DNA from: Dehalococcoidia bacterium
Lineage (GTDB): Bacteria; Chloroflexota; Dehalococcoidia; SZUA-161; SpSt-899
Direction: 5' to 3'
DNA: 64,000 nt
Assembly: GCA_046498265.1 (NCBI GenBank)
Contig: JAWOBB010000034.1
Location: 503 to 64,502, forward strand
The notes under the pieces are model-generated. The model was not told the DNA's origin and did no database searches. It saw nothing but the letters and a program-made list of their open reading frames with translations. Positions 2,833 to 25,981 of the stretch are shown piece after piece (position 1 is the stretch's first letter; each line of letters starts with the position of its first letter). Made by a program: the position numbers and the translations under genes.

Positions 2833-4278
2833 TTATCTAACTGGTCGGGCTTTCCAGTGATAAACACTCAAGCCCCGGTTTACCTGCATCCGGCGGAAGG
2901 TCATCTCCACCTCCGATCCCACTTCAAGTTCGGCCGGATCCCTGTCGGTGAGATCGAAAAAAGCTCGACCGCCGCCCTCGAAATCGACAAGAACCACGGA
3001 GGCAGGGGGATCGGCTACCGGAGCGAGATTGTCGTGGGTGTAGCTGAAAACCTTTGCCCTTTTTCTGGAGAAGTTGTAATCCTCAAAATCATCACAGGCG
3101 CCGCAGTGGGCACAGACCCGAACCGGAGTGGTAGCCGCAGCACCGTCGTCATATTGAACGGTCCCGCATTGCCTGCATTTGACTCCCCACAGCCCGATCT
3201 GCTGCCTGTTCTCCCGCCACATGGCTGAAAGCCGGGCCGGGGTTTTAGTGGGGCGTCTGGCCTCTTCCTGGGGAACTATATTTCGCCATATCAAATAAGG
3301 ATTGTATCCATCCATCATTTTCTTTGAGGCCAGATGTCCTTTTATGCCCCGGCGCTGGGGCAGCTTTTCAATGGCATCCGTTACCTGAAAAATAAACGCA
3401 TCGGCCCCGTCCCCGCTGCCGGCAAAGAGGATTTTGTCGCCGGGCTTGGCCTCCTCCAGGGCACTGGCAAGCATCATCAGCGGCTGGGCGCAGCCGGTGA
3501 TCCCCACGTTCAAGAACAGGGTGAAGGGATCCTGTACCTGTGAGGCATCGAATCCCGCTGCTGTTGCGGCTTTGCCATGGCGGCGGCCATCCACCGGGCT
3601 GTCGAAGACCACCCTGGCAAAATCCTTTGGCTCCAGGCCGTACTTTTTCATTATCCCGCCCAGCACTTCCGGGATGACTCTTGAATAGCCCTCATCCATG
3701 ATCATCCGGTCTTCCCAGGTGCGCAGATAATCATCGTTGGAGGCCCGCCATGCACCGGCAAGCTCATCGGTAATTGAGTAACTGCCCTCGACCTCGGCGA
3801 TGACGTTATCCTTGCCCAGCAGAACCGCGCCGGCGCCGTCGCCCAGTCCCTGTTCCGTCATTCCGGCTGGTGCTGCCGTGCGAGCATCCGATGAGGTCAC
3901 CATCACGCTGTTTGCCGAGCCAGCCTCGATGGCATCGAGAGCCATACCGAAAGCGCTGGCTCCCGCTCGAAGCGATGTGTTTATGTCGGCCGTCCTGACA
4001 TCGCGGCGCATATCCAGTGCAAGTGACATGATAGATGCACATTGTTTTTCTTTGTAAGGAGAGGTGGTAGTAGCAAAATAGAGGGCATCTATAGCTCGAC
4101 TGTCCAGGTCTCCCAGACAATCCCTGGCCGCTTCCACGCCCATGGTCACGCTATCCTCATCGAAATAGGCTACCGCTTTCTCTCCGGGCATTCCGAATCC
4201 TCCCCAGGCATCGACGCATTTTTGCCTCTCCATGCGATGCCAGGGAATATACGCTCCATAAGATACTATTCCTGCCAT
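2833..4278 (-). CDS. HMG-CoA-synthase-like domain fused to C-terminal DUF35 Zn-ribbon/OB-fold
   Basis: GIVSYGAYIP, DEDSVTMGVEAA, GDGAGA motifs; C-terminal CRQC...CAHC and OB fold. Start moved to the ATG after AAGGAG. Confidence 0.85.
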   Translation of the reverse strand: MAGIVSYGAYIPWHRMERQKCVDAWGGFGMPGEKAVAYFDEDSVTMGVEAARDCLGDLDSRAIDALYFATTTSPYKEKQCASIMSLALDMRRDVRTADINTSLRAGASAFGMALDAIEAGSANSVMVTSSDARTAAPAGMTEQGLGDGAGAVLLGKDNVIAEVEGSYSITDELAGAWRASNDDYLRTWEDRMIMDEGYSRVIPEVLGGIMKKYGLEPKDFARVVFDSPVDGRRHGKAATAAGFDASQVQDPFTLFLNVGITGCAQPLMMLASALEEAKPGDKILFAGSGDGADAFIFQVTDAIEKLPQRRGIKGHLASKKMMDGYNPYLIWRNIVPQEEARRPTKTPARLSAMWRENRQQIGLWGVKCRQCGTVQYDDGAAATTPVRVCAHCGACDDFEDYNFSRKRAKVFSYTHDNLAPVADPPASVVLVDFEGGGRAFFDLTDRDPAELEVGSEVEMTFRRMQVNRGLSVYHWKARPVR

Positions 4279-10545: not shown

Positions 10546-11808
10546 CTACTCCGCAGGCGATCGAACGACCGGATACCATTCATCGTGAACCCGGAAAAGG
10601 TCCTTTTCCTCGCCGTTTACCTCATAAATAGCCAGATGGTCGATTGAAGAACGCTTGTTTTTGCCAAAGCTGGCTCTCTCTATGCCATCAACGGTCTGAG
10701 AATATGCCTCTGCGGCTTGATAAAGAGCTTCCGAGTCAAATCCCCCCGGGCCCGCTTCCTCGATGGCGTCTACTATTATATCAAGTATCTGGTATATGGC
10801 ATCGATTGAGATGTAGGAAGCTCCCTCCCCCATAATCTCTTCGGCCGAGTCCGGATGCTTGGCGAAGAGGAGTTGTTTGGTCATATTGATTATCTCAGTA
10901 TCATCGGTCCACCATCCGGAAGGAAGGATGAAGAGCGATCCATCGAACTTGTCCCAGAGATGGGCATCGCTTATCGTTCCCAGAAAAGCAGACTGAGCCC
11001 CCGTTCCCATGAATTTGCCATCATATCCTGCACCTCGATACTCCTTGACGAAACTGACGAGACTGATGGGCAGCATTATATAATCGCATTCCTTCAGGGC
11101 CTCTACCTCGGTCTTCCAGTTGAAGCCGATTTCGATGGTATATCCCCCCACCCATTCAAACTTGTCCGGGTGAGCTTCGGCATATTCCTTCATGGCATCC
11201 TGCAGCGCGATATTGTAGGGGGTTTTCCATCCTGCAGCCCCTATCTTTGCTCGCCTGTCGGCAGGGAAATCCGAATCGTTTTCGGCAACCCATTTGAGTA
11301 AAGTATAGGCATTCTCCGAAGGCAGTGTTGAGGGGACAAAAATATAGCCGGGAGGGTATACCAGGTCATCATCTGCTGCCGTGGTGAAAAGGACCATCTC
11401 ATCCTGGGTAACCCGAGGTTTCAGGGTAAGGGGAGTGGTGGGCACGTTGCTGAAAATGAGGTCCGCACCATCGCGTTTTACCTTCTCATAACACGGGATT
11501 TCCTTACTGGGTTCGTAAGCGCAGTCACAAGTGGCTACCTCCAGGCGAGCTCCCTCAGGGATAAGCCCGTTTTCAGTATAATATTCCACCGCATCATCCA
11601 GAGCCATATCGATAGGCTCCATGGCGGTTGCCGAAGCTCCCGTCTGATCCGTAATATACCCGATAGTAATAGTAGTGATCTCGGGAGGTTCCTTTTCCCC
11701 GTTACTTTCCCCGGTACTATCTTCACCACCGCATCCGGCCAGCAAAGGTAATATCAATAACAAACCTGCCAGAATCGGTAAACATGCTTTGCCAGGAATT
11801 CTTGCCAT
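10546..11808 (-). CDS. ABC-type substrate-binding lipoprotein (LivJ-like), paralog of its neighbour
   Basis: Lipobox LLAGC; ITIGYITDQTG; shares PPG(W/Y), AKIGAA, TEVEAL..CDY and WWTD motifs with 9121..10416. Confidence 0.8.
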   Translation of the reverse strand: MARIPGKACLPILAGLLLILPLLAGCGGEDSTGESNGEKEPPEITTITIGYITDQTGASATAMEPIDMALDDAVEYYTENGLIPEGARLEVATCDCAYEPSKEIPCYEKVKRDGADLIFSNVPTTPLTLKPRVTQDEMVLFTTAADDDLVYPPGYIFVPSTLPSENAYTLLKWVAENDSDFPADRRAKIGAAGWKTPYNIALQDAMKEYAEAHPDKFEWVGGYTIEIGFNWKTEVEALKECDYIMLPISLVSFVKEYRGAGYDGKFMGTGAQSAFLGTISDAHLWDKFDGSLFILPSGWWTDDTEIINMTKQLLFAKHPDSAEEIMGEGASYISIDAIYQILDIIVDAIEEAGPGGFDSEALYQAAEAYSQTVDGIERASFGKNKRSSIDHLAIYEVNGEEKDLFRVHDEWYPVVRSPAE

Positions 11809-20567: not shown

Positions 20568-21116
20568 ATGAGTATCGGAACGCAGCAGTTAATAAACGAA
20601 TACAGGCTGGAAATGGTCACCCCCGGCTGTTTCCCGGGGGCGCCGATATGGAGGGCCGAAGTAACTTTCGAAACTGATATCAGCCGGGTGCTCCCGTACT
20701 TAAACGCCGAGCTGGGAGATACCAGTTACAATCACCATGCCCAAACCCTCCTGTACAACGGCGATAACGGCAGGCGATATGCTTTCCGACCGCATGAAAT
20801 CGATATCGCCCCGGCCGAGGACAGGGAAACGGCTGTCAGGTTGTGCGATGATATCGTTTCCAGAGTTAACGATATCTGGGCAAGGAGGAATGAAATCACC
20901 CCCGATTTTCAGGGGAAAGCCGCCCCGCCAGACGTGCTTGAGGTTCGAAAACTCCTGCCCGGGACCAACTGCAAGGAATGTGGATATGCCACCTGCATGG
21001 CTTTTGCGGCGGCGCTGTCCCAGGGCAAGGCGAATTTATCCGAGTGCCCGCATATTTTGGTTGATGAATTTGCCGAGAACAGGAACGCCTTGCTGGGTCT
21101 GCTGGGACTGGAGTGA
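20568..21116 (+). CDS. Fe-S-binding protein with a C-terminal FeS domain
   Basis: LPGTNCKECGYATCMAFA...CP motif. Confidence 0.75.
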   Translation: MSIGTQQLINEYRLEMVTPGCFPGAPIWRAEVTFETDISRVLPYLNAELGDTSYNHHAQTLLYNGDNGRRYAFRPHEIDIAPAEDRETAVRLCDDIVSRVNDIWARRNEITPDFQGKAAPPDVLEVRKLLPGTNCKECGYATCMAFAAALSQGKANLSECPHILVDEFAENRNALLGLLGLE

Positions 21117-21755: not shown

Positions 21756-23054
21756 ATGGCTGAGGAACGTAAGCTGAAGGGGCCGCAGATCTGTGCTGTC
21801 GGGGTGAACTACAGCACCACTCCGGTGGAAGTACGGGAAAGGCTGAGCATGCCGAAGGACAGGATTCGGGATGCCCTGGCTTCGCTGCGCGATTATGTGC
21901 CAAGGGGAATAATCCTGGATACCTGCAATCGCACTGAGCTCTATGCCCTGAGCAACGACAGCCACTACTCCGAGCGGGCGCTGCGCCAATTCTTGCAGGA
22001 CTGGTCGGGGGTTCCCGAGGAGGAGCTCTCGCCTCATCTCTACATCCATCACAATTACCGGGCCATGAAGCGGCTGTGCCGGATCACCTCCGGGCTGTAC
22101 TCAATGATCCTGGGCGAGCACGAGATACTGGGGCAGGCGGCCCAGGCCCTCGAGGAAGCCGAGGAAGCCAGGATGGTCGATTCGCCGCTGCGCCGGCTCT
22201 TTCAGCACGCCATCGGCACCGGTCGCAAGGTGAGGGCCGAGACGGATATCAGCAGGAACGCCCTTTCGGTGGGCTCGGTGGCGGTCGATTTGTCCACCCG
22301 GGCAGCCGGCGCGGATATCCGCGATTGCAAAGTGCTTCTCCTCGGAGCAGGGGAGGCGGGCAAACTGGCAGCCAGGGCTTTTGCTCAAAGAGGGGCGGGG
22401 TCGATTTCCGTTACCAGTCGGTCTCTGCGCAGAGCTCAGGAGCTGGCTTCTAAACTTGGCGCCAGCCCCGTCGATATCAAGGAGATGGGCATGGAGATGG
22501 CCAATTCCGATATCGTCATCAGTTGTACCGGCTCGCCGCATTTCGTGATTCACCGTGAGCTGGTGGAGAAGGCGATGTCCTGGCGCGCCAATCGTCCGCT
22601 GGTCATCGTCGATATCGCCGTTCCGAGGGATGTGGAGCCAGAGGTTGACGAAATAGACAATGTCTTCCTTTACGATATCGATGACCTGGACCGGGCACTG
22701 GGAACGAACAAGGAAGAGCGGGAGAGGGAAGTCGAAAAGGCCCAGGCCATCATCGACAGTGAGCTGGAGCATCTTCTCGAGTGGTGGCAGACCCTGGAGG
22801 TCAAGCCCACCATCAGCCGGCTGATGCAGATGGCCGAGGACGTTCGCCGACGGCAGCTGAACATGACCCTGAAAAAGCTGCCCCCGCTTGATGCCGAACA
22901 GCAGGAGAGCCTGGATGCCATGACCAGGGCAATCGTCAAAAAGATACTTCACAATCCCATCCAGTACATGAAGAAAAACGGTTATACCAACGAAGAGGTC
23001 GTCCGGGTGCTCCATGAGCTTTTTGCCCTGGATGAACAGAAAGAGCGCAAGTGA
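21756..23054 (+). CDS. hemA: Glutamyl-tRNA reductase
   Basis: TCNRTELY, SMILGEHEILGQ, GAGEAG, DIAVPRDVE. Confidence 0.95.
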   Translation: MAEERKLKGPQICAVGVNYSTTPVEVRERLSMPKDRIRDALASLRDYVPRGIILDTCNRTELYALSNDSHYSERALRQFLQDWSGVPEEELSPHLYIHHNYRAMKRLCRITSGLYSMILGEHEILGQAAQALEEAEEARMVDSPLRRLFQHAIGTGRKVRAETDISRNALSVGSVAVDLSTRAAGADIRDCKVLLLGAGEAGKLAARAFAQRGAGSISVTSRSLRRAQELASKLGASPVDIKEMGMEMANSDIVISCTGSPHFVIHRELVEKAMSWRANRPLVIVDIAVPRDVEPEVDEIDNVFLYDIDDLDRALGTNKEEREREVEKAQAIIDSELEHLLEWWQTLEVKPTISRLMQMAEDVRRRQLNMTLKKLPPLDAEQQESLDAMTRAIVKKILHNPIQYMKKNGYTNEEVVRVLHELFALDEQKERK

Positions 23055-23959
23055 GAAACCATTTGAGGATCGGTACCCGGGGGAGCAAACTGGCGGTGGT
23101 TCAGGCAGAGTCTGTGAGGGACCGGCTTGTCTCGCTTCATCCCGGAATTGATTTCGAGATCGGGAAGATAACCACTACCGGCGATCGGAACACCGACGTT
23201 TCGCTTGAGCAGCTGGGGGGGGAGGGGGTTTTCGTCAAGGAACTGGAGGATGCCTTGCTGAGAGATGAGATCGACCTGGCGGTCCACAGCCTGAAGGACA
23301 TGCTTACCACCATACCCGACGGGCTTCGCCTGGCTGCTGTGCCCCAGAGAGTTGACCCGAGGGATGTGCTGCTTTCTTCAGCGGGCAACATTGCCGAGCT
23401 TCCCCCGAAAGCACGCATTGGCACCGGCAGCCAGCGGCGCGCCGTCCAGATTCGGGAGATGAGGCCGGATGTGGAAATCTGCGATTTGCGGGGGAATATA
23501 GATACCCGTATCAGGAAAGCTTTTTCGGGCGAACTTGACGGCATCGTTATGGCTGCGGCTGCGCTAATTCGGCTGAATATGGAAGACAGGATAACCGAGT
23601 ATCTCCCTGCCGAAGAATTTGTGCCGGCGGTGGGACAGGGAGCTTTGGGAATCGAGATTCGGGCCGATGATGCTCATACATTCGAGATCGTAGCTTCCCT
23701 CAATGATGAACTAAGCCGGCGGAGCGTGACTGCAGAGAGGGCGTTCCTGCGAGCCATGGGCGGGGGCTGCCGGGCCCCGATTGCAGCGCTGGGAAATATT
23801 GAAAATGGTAATATCAAGCTTAATGGAATTGTAGCTAATCCTGATGGGAGCAAGATATTGCGCTCCAGTGTCGAGGGAGATGCCTCGGCTCCCGAAAAGC
23901 TCGGGGAAGAGCTGGCTGCCGGGATGATCGATATGGGAGCGAGATCGTTGATTCAATAG
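23051..23959 (+). CDS. hemC: Porphobilinogen deaminase
   Basis: IGTRGSKLA, AVHSLKD, RGNIDTR, GGGCRAPI. Confidence 0.95.
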   Translation: MRNHLRIGTRGSKLAVVQAESVRDRLVSLHPGIDFEIGKITTTGDRNTDVSLEQLGGEGVFVKELEDALLRDEIDLAVHSLKDMLTTIPDGLRLAAVPQRVDPRDVLLSSAGNIAELPPKARIGTGSQRRAVQIREMRPDVEICDLRGNIDTRIRKAFSGELDGIVMAAAALIRLNMEDRITEYLPAEEFVPAVGQGALGIEIRADDAHTFEIVASLNDELSRRSVTAERAFLRAMGGGCRAPIAALGNIENGNIKLNGIVANPDGSKILRSSVEGDASAPEKLGEELAAGMIDMGARSLIQ

Positions 23960-24448
23960 TTTTAGACAGGATAACAGGATGAACAGGATGGAGTACAAAG
24001 ATCTGACGGAAAAGGTGATAGGATGCGCATACCGCGTCTATAACAAAATGGGATTTGGATTTGCTGAAAGTGTCTATGAAAAGTGTTTAATGATAGAACT
24101 ACAAAAAACCGGCCTATATACAGAGTCCCAAAAGCCGATTACAGTATATTACGGAGATGAAATAGTAGGAGAATTTGTAGCTGATATTGTAGTTGCTGAT
24201 AAAATCATCGTTGAATTGAAATCCGTAAGGCGACTTGTTAAAGCTCATGAGGCACAATTAGTAAATTACCTTGTTGCTACGGGTAAGCCCTTAGGCTTAC
24301 TGATAAACTTCGGGGAAATGAGAGTTGAAGTTAAGCGAAAATACAGGGATTTCAATGGTGATCAGAAAGTGCAATCAGAATTAGCAGGGGATGCAGGATA
24401 ATATAATAACTCAAAAAAATCTTGAAAATCCTGTACATCCTGTCAAAA
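23960..24448. mobile_element. Putative inserted cassette: GxxExxY gene bounded by ACAGGAT-array inverted repeats
   Basis: Left arm TTTTAGACAGGATAACAGGATGAACAGGAT (23960-23989); right arm ATCTTGAAAATCCTGTACATCCTGTCAAAA (24419-24448); AT-rich interior. Confidence 0.5.
23979..24401 (+). CDS. GxxExxY protein (PD-(D/E)XK-like family)
   Basis: MGFGFAESVYEKCL, ADIVV, IIVELKS, HEAQLVNYL, GLLINFG. The start may be the ATG at 23988. Confidence 0.9.
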   Translation: MNRMEYKDLTEKVIGCAYRVYNKMGFGFAESVYEKCLMIELQKTGLYTESQKPITVYYGDEIVGEFVADIVVADKIIVELKSVRRLVKAHEAQLVNYLVATGKPLGLLINFGEMRVEVKRKYRDFNGDQKVQSELAGDAG

Positions 24449-24463
24449 ATTAAAGGGCGAATT

Positions 24464-25981
24464 ATGAGCCAGGGCAAAGTCTACCTAGTCGGAGCCGGGC
24501 CCGGTGATCCGGGCCTAATTACAGTCAAGGGCATGGAATGCCTCCGGCAGGCCGAGGTGGTCGTCTACGACAGGTTGATAGATGACAGTTTGCTTGATCT
24601 GGTCCCTCCTGAGGCGGAGATGATCTATGTGGGCAAATCGGCCAGGGTGCATGCCAGGGAGCAGTCCGAGATCAACCGGATTCTGATTGATAAAGCCGGC
24701 GAAGGCCGGACGGTGGTTCGTCTCAAAGGGGGCGACCCGTTCGTGCTGGGTCGGGGTGGGGAGGAATGTGAAGCACTCGCCGCCAGCGGCATACCCTATG
24801 AAGTGGTGCCGGGCATTTCTTCGGCCATCGCCTCCCCCGCTTACGCCGGTATTCCCGTAACGCACCGGCAGGCAGCCTCTTCGTTTGCCGTCATCACCGG
24901 GCACGAGGATCCCACCAAGGAGCTCTCCAGTATCAACTGGGATAAGCTTGCTACTGGAGTCGATACCCTCGTTTTCCTGATGGGAATGGGCAATCTCCCC
25001 CTGATTGCCGAAAAACTAATCGAATGCGGCCGTGCCCCGGATACGCCGGTGGCCCTGATTCGTCAGGGAACCACTCTACAACAGGAAGTGATCACCGCCA
25101 CGCTTTCAACGGTGGCCGAGAAAGCCAGGGAGGCCGGTTTCGAGCCGCCGGTGGCTATCGTGGTGGGTGAGGTTGTCAATCTCCGCGAGAAACTCCAGTG
25201 GTTTGAGAATCGGCCGCTCTTTGATAAGCGGGTGCTGGTCACCCGGGCGCGCACCCAGGTCAGCAGCTTGAGCAAACTGCTGGCCGAAAGAGGTGCCCAG
25301 CCAATCGAGTTGCCGGCCATCGAGATTCAGGATTTGCCCGATACGGCTGAACTGGATCAGGCGATTAGGGATATCCCCCGCTTCGACTGGGTGTTTTTTA
25401 CCAGCGCCAACGGGGTTGAAGCGGTCTGGAACCGGCTGGTAGCTTTGGGCAGGGATGCCCGCCAATTCGGAGCGGTGAAGATCGGGGTCATCGGGCCTGC
25501 CACCGCCCTGGCTCTGGCAGAAAGAGGGCTTTACCCCGATTTCATGCCGGCAGAGTACACCAGTGATGGTATTTTAGCCGGCCTTGCGGAACGCGATATC
25601 AAAGGATGCCGTATTCTGCTGCCGCGGGCGGATATTGCGCCTGCGGATCTGGTTGAGGGGCTTGCCGGTCTGGGTGCAGAGCCCGTCGAGGTCACCGCAT
25701 ATCTGACCAGGCCTCCTTTGGAGATTGCCGAAAAGGCCAGGCAGATGTTGCTTGACGGTAAGATTGATATTATCACCTTCGCCAGTTCTTCCACGGTGAC
25801 TAATCTGCTCGAGGCGCTGGGGAGTGACCTGCAGCCGTTGCAGAATGCGCAGATTGCCTGTATCGGCCCGGTGACGGCGGCCACTGCCGAGGCGGCGGGC
25901 CTCAAGGTGGATATCACAGCCGAGGAGCAGACCATTCCCGGCCTGGTCAGGGCCATCGAGGAGGCATATTCAAATGGCTGA
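24464..25981 (+). CDS. cobA: Uroporphyrinogen-III C-methyltransferase / uroporphyrinogen-III synthase fusion (CobA-HemD)
   Basis: [22 protein letters not shown]; C-terminal FTSANGV, FASSSTV. Confidence 0.95.

Follow-up and report, generated by a model that had tools for sequence, protein, structure and literature searches.

The 64,000-nt stretch of Dehalococcoidia DNA analysed here—hereafter called the window, with coordinates on its forward strand and G000 as its source genome—carries a cassette of about 490 bp (23960–24448) between the heme biosynthesis genes hemC and cobA-hemD. The cassette consists of a small nuclease gene of the GxxExxY family, placed between inverted arrays of a 7-nt word, ACAGGAT on the left and its reverse complement ATCCTGT on the right. 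With high confidence, we regard it as one copy of a selfish, horizontally moving mobile family that lacks a transposase, for which the heme operon is a landing site. In this family, the GxxExxY gene travels with its inverted arrays of 7-nt words (here AC..GAT, with a period of 8–9 nt) between the ends TTTGACAGGAT...ATCCTGTCAAAA; the family moves between phyla, sits co-oriented in operon spacers, and leaves behind or spawns hairpins without a gene. A first-pass annotation, made from the sequence alone, had proposed a transposase-free selfish or mobile cassette at this site, and the empty junctions in relatives, the identical termini across phyla and the gene-less hairpins in G000 bear this proposal out.

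Architecture of the cassette

The upstream host gene, hemC (hydroxymethylbilane synthase; 23051–23959, + strand; TIGR00212, 351.9 bits), ends in a TAG stop codon (23957–23959) that directly abuts the cassette. The left (outer) arm (23960–23989, +) opens with a T-run, followed by three ACAGGAT words at 23966, 23974 and 23983 (+; periods of 8 and 9 nt), and its terminus, TTTnGACAGGAT, is common to the homologous loci. Next comes the GxxExxY/PDDEXK_3 gene (23988–24401, +; 137 residues), assigned from profile matches, the alignment and an AlphaFold2 (AF2) model. At the 3′ end of this open reading frame (ORF), the repeat search found an inner, degenerate copy of the left arm, GCAGGGGAT GCAGGAT AA (24381–24401, +). 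A 17-nt A-rich loop (24402–24418, +) leads from the inner copy to the right (outer) arm (24419–24448, +), which is the reverse complement of the left arm and contains the words ATCTTGA (24419), ATCCTGT (24428) and ATCCTGT (24437), with a period of 9 nt, and then CAAAAA. The downstream host gene, a cobA-hemD fusion (uroporphyrinogen-III C-methyltransferase/synthase; 24464–25981, +; TIGR01469, 319.6 bits; NF004593, 136.1 bits), starts with the ATG at 24464 and retains its own AAGGG ribosome-binding site at 24452–24456. The AT-rich gene and its ACAGGAT/ATCCTGT arms lie between the hemC stop and the cobA-hemD start exactly as first described, in every coordinate.

The repeat search aligned two 16-nt segments of the outer arms, 23974–23989 with 24428–24443 (94% complementary) and 23957–23972 with 24437–24452 (88%), while the inner degenerate copy (24385–24399) matched 24428–24442 at 73%. 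Scored from flank to flank, the inverted repeat reaches 28, whereas 200 shuffles averaged 13.9 and never exceeded 25, which excludes a chance origin of the inverted repeat. The GC content is 0.38–0.40 within the cassette versus 0.55–0.62 in its flanks.

The words of the left arm also serve translation, as the first-pass annotation had noticed: the middle word provides a Shine-Dalgarno-like AGGA (23976–23979), and the last word overlaps the start codon. An upstream ATG at 23979 would give a product three residues longer. The true start is most likely the second ATG, at 23988, because all 63 aligned homologues begin with MEY... and the AGGA of the middle word lies 8 nt upstream of it. Single ACAGGAT words are also frequent in the window as a whole (20 versus 6.8 expected; 0 of 100 shuffles as many); five of them belong to the cassette, and the other 15 lie mostly within genes.

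The cassette is a secondary insertion in the heme operon

The host operon runs in the order ahbA/ahbB (fused), a 182-residue ORF, the cysG N-terminal domain, hemA, hemC, cobA-hemD, hemB and hemL, all on the + strand. Its genes overlap or nearly touch, and the sole large spacer is the 504-nt gap that contains the cassette. In a set of 41 related genomes, hemC was detected in 20, and the GxxExxY gene is absent from the hemC–cobA-hemD junction in all 17 loci that have both genes. The junction measures only about 2–25 nt in 14 of these 17, including the same-genus genome G001; the other three are longer (about 97, 132 and 278 nt) and are occupied by other small palindromic elements. The comparison of junctions that the first-pass annotation had called for thus revealed empty sites and, in addition, one partial remnant of the left arm. 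In the same-genus genome G003, the sequence TAGTTTTAGACAGGATAACAGGAT directly follows the hemC stop and is identical to window positions 23957–23980, which hold two left-arm words. An unrelated palindrome of about 85 nt comes after it, with neither a gene nor a right arm. From these shared letters, the ACAGGAT element was probably already present at the hemC-cobA junction in the common ancestor of G000 and G003, and was later partly overwritten in G003.

The palindrome itself (CCCTCACCTCAATCCTCTCCC...GGGAGAG..GAGGGG) recurs in hemC-cobA or pdxS-pdxT spacers of relatives (L005:~1380-1470 in G003, L006:~2420-2520 in G009, and L130 in G008), and apparently represents a further family of repeats dispersed between the genes of this lineage.

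Contigs of a sequencing run from a second study span 23922–24121, i.e., the hemC end, the left arm and the start of the gene, with one mismatch. Therefore, the hemC/cassette junction is not an accident of assembly. The cassette is a secondary insertion in an otherwise gap-free ahbAB-cysG(N)-hemA-hemC-cobA/hemD-hemB-hemL operon.

The GxxExxY protein has an intact PD-(D/E)XK-like active site

The ORF matches TIGR04256 with 144.9 bits (cut-off 35), over profile positions 1–115 of 116, and PF13366 (PDDEXK_3) with 145 bits (cut-off 22). Cas4 is a further, weak family match, and the ORF matches no recognised transposase family. The GxxExxY motif is present as G24-F-A-E27-S-V-Y30, and the PD-(D/E)XK signature as D66 and E76-x-K78. 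Across 64 aligned sequences, E27, E37, D66, K78, E88, N93 and Y94 never vary, and at least 90% have E76. The AF2 model (predicted local distance difference test score, 89.6) has the element order H-H-E-E-E-H-E-E, a minimal PD-(D/E)XK fold, while the C-terminal residues (about 14), encoded by the inner arm copy, are disordered. The nearest solved folds found by Foldseek are Cas4 SSO0001 (E = 1.7e-4), lambda-exonuclease-type enzymes and Hjc, and the VIA structural matches with Z scores of 8.2–8.5 are BpuSI, 3ijm, SwaI and Cas4. These middling values establish the superfamily of the modelled fold, but no function. The sequence search of the PDB gave no meaningful match, the best being an unrelated enzyme with E = 0.035. 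The earlier description of the protein as PD-(D/E)XK-like agrees with the intact catalytic residues and with the restriction-endonuclease-like α/β fold of the AF2 model. At least 7 of 79 homologues contain early stops, and split copies occur in the related genome G005; such decay is expected of selfish genes.

Inverted word arrays bracket the homologous genes

The homologue scan used one genome per species and yielded 494 confirmed relatives, of which the best 80 entered the analyses of loci. Of the 77 homologous loci with full flanks, 57 have two or more ACAGGAT-like words upstream together with two or more ATCCTGT-like words downstream, and four more have only the reverse layout, so that 61 of 77 are bracketed in all. 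None of 251 displaced control frames has the bracket in either layout. The flank inverted repeat lies above the 99th percentile of shuffles in 57 of 76 loci. The survey of GxxExxY genes for flanking inverted arrays that had been suggested at the outset came out positive for these close loci. Neither pattern named there as contrary to a mobile cassette—a gene kept vertically in syntenic heme operons of relatives, together with homologues devoid of inverted arrays—was found.

The commonest layout has three forward words upstream ('>>>' at −72, −64 and −55), a weak reverse word ('<' at −44), a leader of about 40 nt and a strong ribosome-binding site; downstream, a single '>' at +8 precedes '<<<' at about +25, +34 and +43. 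The window copy is compact: it has no leader, and the words themselves give the ribosome-binding site and the start codon. When ten loci are aligned as DNA, similarity starts at TTTGACAGGAT and stops at ATCCTGTCAAAA, and the sequences are unrelated beyond these ends.

More distant members of the family have the identical architecture with other words. In relatives, these are CACAGAG, CACGGAG, CACAAAG and GATTACAGCGAT, and the bracket of the relatives' genes beats 200 of 200 shuffles in eight of nine cases; other Chloroflexota-level genomes use CACGAAT, CACGGAC, CACGAAG, GATTAGCG and others. Within one genome, each GxxExxY paralogue has its own word type. Moreover, arm similarity rises with protein identity (Spearman 0.355 over 27 loci; 0 of 2000 permutations as high).

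In the 48 loci with three words on each side, positions 1, 2, 5, 6 and 7 (AC..GAT) are almost invariant, and the variation at positions 3 and 4 falls mainly on the innermost word. The partner word mirrors a deviation in only 19 of 104 cases (controls: 4 of 244 for non-mirror words and 6 of 109 for other loci), and the spacers are complementary between the arms in 32 of 96, all of these word-deviation and spacer counts being inflated by related loci. Judging from the aligned arms, there is some pairing constraint, but the dominant signal is conservation of the word sequence itself, which fits a candidate protein-binding site better than a mere stem.

The family is spread across phyla

The best 80 of the 494 homologues are 58–80% identical to the window protein, and the 56 labelled rows among them bear 13 phylum labels. 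The labels include Thermodesulfobacteriota, Planctomycetota (anammox lineages), Nitrospirota, Verrucomicrobiota, Kiritimatiellota, Lentisphaerota, Hydrogenedentota, Calditrichota, Chloroflexota, the archaeal Methanosarcinales, and others. Among the 41 close relatives, just nine have GxxExxY genes, which share 35–58% identity with either copy in G000, occupy other sites (e.g., hisA-hisI) and use other words. Since even the host hemC reaches just 80% identity within the genus, vertical descent cannot account for the 80% match of the window protein to a Desulfobacteraceae gene. We argue for transfer from these comparisons of identity, not from the protein tree, whose resolution is too poor for the purpose (2 of 61 branches are starred). 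Its 30 phylum changes, where at least 12 are needed and shuffling gives 38.5 on average, are only suggestive of transfer. A listing in PMC3424549 places PF13366 under 'Unknown ... multiple transfers, mixed clades'. Elsewhere, cassettes persist at the genus level, as indicated by the shared sites L105/L106 and L108/L109. In the 62 homologous loci where both neighbours were called (by rough ORF calls), the strands of the neighbours relative to the cassette gene are +/+ in 40, +/− in 11, −/+ in 8 and −/− in 3; the cassette gene thus nearly always runs the same way as the genes around it.

Gene-less hairpins accompany the cassette

The first-pass annotation had also recommended a search of the genome for solo ACAGGAT/ATCCTGT hairpins, and G000 contains four: C2:26436-26497, C61:33532-33592, C69:596-658 and C4:~3808-3875. 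Each has three words, a loop of 7–20 nt and three reverse words, with ends as in the cassette. Those on C2, C61 and C69 lie in short spacers between co-oriented genes, and the one on C4 lies 5 nt past the stop of the upstream gene and 522 nt ahead of the next gene. A genome-wide scan for tandem-word hairpins found five loci in G000, versus 0, 0 and 1 in three shuffled genomes. The earlier suggestion that recombination between direct arm copies would leave a hairpin stands in part: hairpin-only sites exist, and their structure is just what recombination between the outer and inner left arms of a cassette would leave, from which they may have originated.

Exact tandem ACAGGAT pairs occur in 13 of the 41 relatives (0 for the reversed-pattern control); across the phylum, 51 of 401 genomes have them, versus 7 of 401 for the control. 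Among the relatives, they are present in 7 of 9 holders of a GxxExxY gene versus 6 of 32 non-holders, these genomes being kin and not independent. In other genomes of the phylum, none of 20 sampled ACAGGAT arrays has a GxxExxY gene within 1 kb; all are solo hairpins or single arms, and these 20 gene-less sites likewise showed no cargo of another protein family in ACAGGAT brackets.

A read joint from 23980 to 24427, with 36 other letters between, appeared in four DNA runs and was considered as a trace of excision. We rejected it: its side is 20 nt, its depth is 2.7, and it most likely represents a foreign gene-less hairpin or one from another locus.

Other inserts and repeats in the genome

A second word-array bracket in G000 carries a different cargo. 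Between inverted arrays of GGAGAA words lies a PF05635 four-helix-bundle gene (91.3 bits; C71:~11075-11510, L104:1437-1870), in the spacer between a hydantoinase-B-type gene and an acetone-carboxylase-gamma gene. The inverted-repeat score of this bracket is 42, versus a shuffle maximum of 25. The word-array bracket is a chassis common to two unrelated families of small proteins. Arrays of the GGAGAA type on C24 were also considered as a bracket around a 2.6-kb cargo, and proved to be separate one-armed arrays that lie in different spacers.

The second GxxExxY gene of G000 (C53:3094-3435; L001:1492-1908, minus strand) is 41% identical to the window copy and fills a 652-nt gap between pdxS and pdxT, which measures 2–20 nt in 12 of 19 relatives. 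An 11-nt inverted repeat at this gene was considered as a degenerate bracket and is unsupported by the shuffle test within 110 nt. Elsewhere, the pdxS-pdxT junction holds a ParE-toxin-family pair (G023, L136:919-1477), two unassigned ORFs (G004, L122:628-1480) or small palindromes. With inserts that differ from one relative to the next, the junction is a hot spot for small selfish elements.

Long one-armed arrays with an 8-nt period (GGGGATCG GGAGAAAC GGAGAAGG ..., then CTGACAAC-type words) occur at about 20 sites in G000, several of them at contig ends; they include C24:12060-12150, C24:14640-14720, C44:15886-19242, C48:141, C53:873-913, C61:178 and 3606, C66:78009 and 85814, C72:44229-44417, and C75:1960. 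One such array lies in the spacer upstream of hisI, the junction that holds a GxxExxY cassette in G011 and G015. A solo hairpin of another word type (C75:7526-7573) consists of two TTGTCGG words, an AT loop and two CCGACAA words, 23 nt past a gene end. Finally, the 182-residue ORF of the heme operon (20568–21116, between ahbAB and the cysG N-terminal domain) is matched only in its last ~45 residues, by the cysteine-rich N-terminus of the acetyl-CoA synthase subunit gamma (56 bits, far under the cut-off).

Transcript folding and a proposed mechanism

In the predicted RNA fold of 23950–24470, 23957–23989 pairs with 24419–24452 in both the minimum free energy and the centroid structures, and the fold is more stable than all 100 shuffles (z = −2.4). 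The predicted pairing encloses the ribosome-binding site and ATG of the cassette gene, and not those of cobA-hemD. The first-pass annotation had allowed the right arm to pair either with the left arm, looping out the ORF, or with the internal copy; the long-range pairing is the one predicted, and the local hairpin is weak (DNA fold of −5.5 kcal/mol, z = −1.0). A scan of the window for promoters and terminators found no site above chance, which fits read-through without polarity. The stem never forms a terminator of the hairpin-plus-U-run type, because Ts precede and As follow it in either orientation. The Rfam scan of 23800–24600 gave nothing at or near threshold, and the same scan of 20 homologous loci gave two tRNAs and one small RNA only, with 0 of 20 in an rRNA gene.

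From these features, we propose the following mechanism.

Expression: Without a promoter of its own, the cassette gene would be transcribed by read-through from the operon. In the transcript, the arms would pair as a stem of about 28 bp, with interruptions, in which the ribosome-binding site and start codon of the cassette are buried, and synthesis of the nuclease would stay low. On the strength of the predicted fold, we consider such masking of translation by arm pairing fairly probable. The stem would be a plausible substrate of RNase III, as in rRNA intervening sequences, and the A-run past the stem would avoid termination, so that cobA-hemD is still expressed.

Mobility: The nuclease may recognise the word arrays of its own element—as a DNA hairpin, a cruciform or a duplex—and cut there or at related sites. 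By analogy with the repetitive extragenic palindromic (REP) elements and their REP-associated tyrosine transposases (RAYTs), cutting would promote the copying or maintenance of the cassette and of the gene-less hairpins, with a hydrolytic nuclease and host repair in the role of the tyrosine transposase. That the nuclease acts on its own arrays is, on this analogy, a possibility that we put a little short of even. The complete explanation—the insertion, the family and this mechanism taken together—is one that we favour by a narrow measure.

Comparison with known systems

The closest parallels come from four kinds of element. Like the REP/REPIN-RAYT systems (as described in PMC3116915, PMC3337134 and PMC3479197), the cassette has an enzyme gene between inverted copies of a short palindromic repeat, gene-less hairpin copies that lie in intergenic spacers of the same genome and outnumber the gene, and no evident target duplication. 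The cassette enzyme, however, is a PD-(D/E)XK hydrolytic nuclease of about 120 residues, whereas the RAYT is an HUH/Y1 (IS200/IS605-like) tyrosine transposase. The arms are tandem 7-nt words with a period of 8–9 nt, in contrast to the single GTAG/CGTC-tagged palindrome of a REP, in which a conserved GTAG or CGTC tetranucleotide stands at one end according to PMC3733652; the cassette ends read TTTnGACAGGAT/ATCCTGTCnAAA, without such a tag. The four solo hairpins of G000 are few compared to classical REPs. RAYTs are described in PMC5581495 as single-copy and vertically kept, while the cassette gene is patchy, horizontally transferred and often decayed, and word hairpins are also present in genomes that yielded no cognate gene.

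The intervening sequences (IVSs) of rRNA genes, exemplified by the Coxiella burnetii helix-45 IVS with its S23p gene as described in PMC4990558, resemble the cassette in being low-GC inserts of about 0.4–0.5 kb with one small ORF (428 nt in Coxiella versus about 490 nt here), in having termini that pair with each other as a stem of about 28 bp, and in a sporadic distribution that suggests horizontal transfer. Unlike an IVS, which lies inside an rRNA helix, the cassette lies in the spacer of a protein operon and has a nuclease as cargo. Dispersed gene-less hairpins are no described feature of IVSs, and the processing by RNase III that applies to the IVS stem is, for the cassette, a proposal by analogy. 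Free-standing homing endonuclease genes (the seg and mob genes of phages, and the LAGLIDADG genes in rRNA inserts of candidate phyla radiation bacteria, PMC11270868) are likewise small nuclease genes between conserved genes, with empty sites in relatives. In contrast to them, the cassette has its own inverted word arrays, occupies many unrelated sites and encodes a fold outside the common homing families.

The cassette also differs from miniature inverted-repeat transposable elements (MITEs) in that it has no known parent insertion sequence with a transposase, its full-length form carries only a nuclease, and no target duplication was seen. MITEs such as Correia/NEMIS resemble it as short intergenic foldback elements with inverted ends, co-transcribed with their neighbours. 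Our literature search, outside which lay supplementary tables that possibly list genomic contexts, found no published description of a GxxExxY cassette.

Alternative explanations and evidence against the proposal

Could the cassette instead spread by homing? The nuclease would then cut empty or hairpin-only sites and the gene-bearing copy would be the repair template, with homology provided by the short arms or, after DNA uptake, by the flanking host genes; the gene-less hairpins would be target alleles or deletion footprints, not mobilised copies. Homing endonucleases of the PD-(D/E)XK type do exist (I-Ssp6803I), and the catalytic residues here are intact. The gene is free-standing between conserved genes, and the hemC-cobA site has filled and empty alleles among relatives; the early stops in homologues and the remnant arm in G003 indicate cycles of gain, decay and loss, and the solo hairpins are exactly the left arm, a loop and the right arm. 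However, four solo hairpins coexist unconverted with an apparently intact gene in G000, and the inner arm copies (at −44 and +8 in the common layout) imply that the gene is flanked by two hairpins, instead of lying in the loop of one. Moreover, the insertion sites differ wholly between genomes (trp, his, heme, pdx and nuo junctions), for which simple allele homing offers no explanation. We therefore judge homing unlikely. The same holds for an element of the IVS type, in which the arms would act only at the RNA level, as an RNase III stem, and the protein would be interchangeable cargo, e.g., a defence or repair nuclease, spread by ordinary horizontal transfer with illegitimate or homologous recombination. 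The likeness to the Coxiella 23S IVS as described (size, low GC, terminal stem of about 28 bp, ORF in the loop), the predicted long-range RNA stem, the co-orientation with host genes (40 +/+ versus 3 −/−) and a gene of the IVS protein family, PF05635, likewise bracketed by word arrays in one of the operon spacers of G000, all speak for it. Against it stand words that are conserved across phyla far beyond the needs of pairing, with just 19 of 104 deviations compensated, the separate word type of each GxxExxY paralogue in a genome and the tracking of protein lineage by the arms, the dispersal of gene-less hairpins in DNA, and the absence of rRNA genes from the 20 homologous loci scanned.

A domesticated host function, where the gene or the stem would serve the heme operon (e.g., through mRNA processing or differential stability of hemA-hemC versus cobA-hemD-hemB-hemL), is very improbable. 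The insertion is old enough for a same-genus genome, G003, to share a remnant, the second-study contigs carry the hemC end, left arm and gene start nearly unchanged, and cassettes persist at the genus level at the other sites given above; but the gene is missing from all 17 heme junctions of relatives, the same unit occurs in unrelated operons of other phyla, and the copies decay. Chance repeats or an assembly artefact have a negligible probability: contigs of the assembly graph do break at the arms in a source-like run, as repeats do, but the shuffle controls, the recurrence of the unit with these ends in 61 of 77 independent loci of other assemblies, and the second-study contig that bridges hemC into the gene argue against it.

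Several observations weigh against our proposal of a mobile cassette served by its own nuclease. The PF05635 cassette of G000, a non-nuclease cargo within the same bracket architecture, gives the strongest reason to think that host factors, not the cargo, may handle the bracket. The correlation between arms and protein lineage would equally be given by plain co-inheritance, and the almost unresolved protein tree, with its 30 phylum changes, is by itself no proof of transfer. A target-site duplication was not seen in a comparison where the spacers of the empty relatives are too diverged for base-by-base alignment; the T-run and A-run at the flanks are inverted, and so belong to the palindrome instead of being direct repeats. 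The second GxxExxY gene of G000 has no significant bracket (score of 16 versus a shuffle mean of 14.7). In addition, G275, a 97% complete genome with ten ACAGGAT tandems, gave no GxxExxY match, and none of the 14 GxxExxY genes in G143, G042, G314 and G394 has ACAGGAT arms. Since hairpins occur in genomes where no gene of the ACAGGAT type was found, their persistence needs no resident cognate nuclease. Finally, we know of no PD-(D/E)XK enzyme that performs strand transfer alone.

Implications

Beyond this locus, we tentatively suggest, while leaning against it on balance, that GxxExxY proteins are the enzymes of pan-prokaryotic, self-recognising mini-elements, in which each lineage reads its own word of 7–8 nt, present in inverted triplets at the ends. 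Cutting at these arrays would spread or retain the cassettes and the gene-less hairpins in the operon spacers of bacteria and archaea, as a nuclease counterpart of REPIN/RAYT that shares the chassis of the rRNA IVSs. PF13366/TIGR04256 is a very large family without an assigned function, and such a role as cassette enzyme would give it one. It would also explain the widespread intergenic word hairpins, which are easily mistaken for operators or promoters, and would link them to the long-unexplained ORF-bearing intervening sequences of rRNA. The family would then comprise small, sequence-programmed nucleases with their cognate sites written beside each gene. For annotation, tight biosynthetic operons—heme here, and pdx, his and trp elsewhere—tolerate such insertions unbroken.

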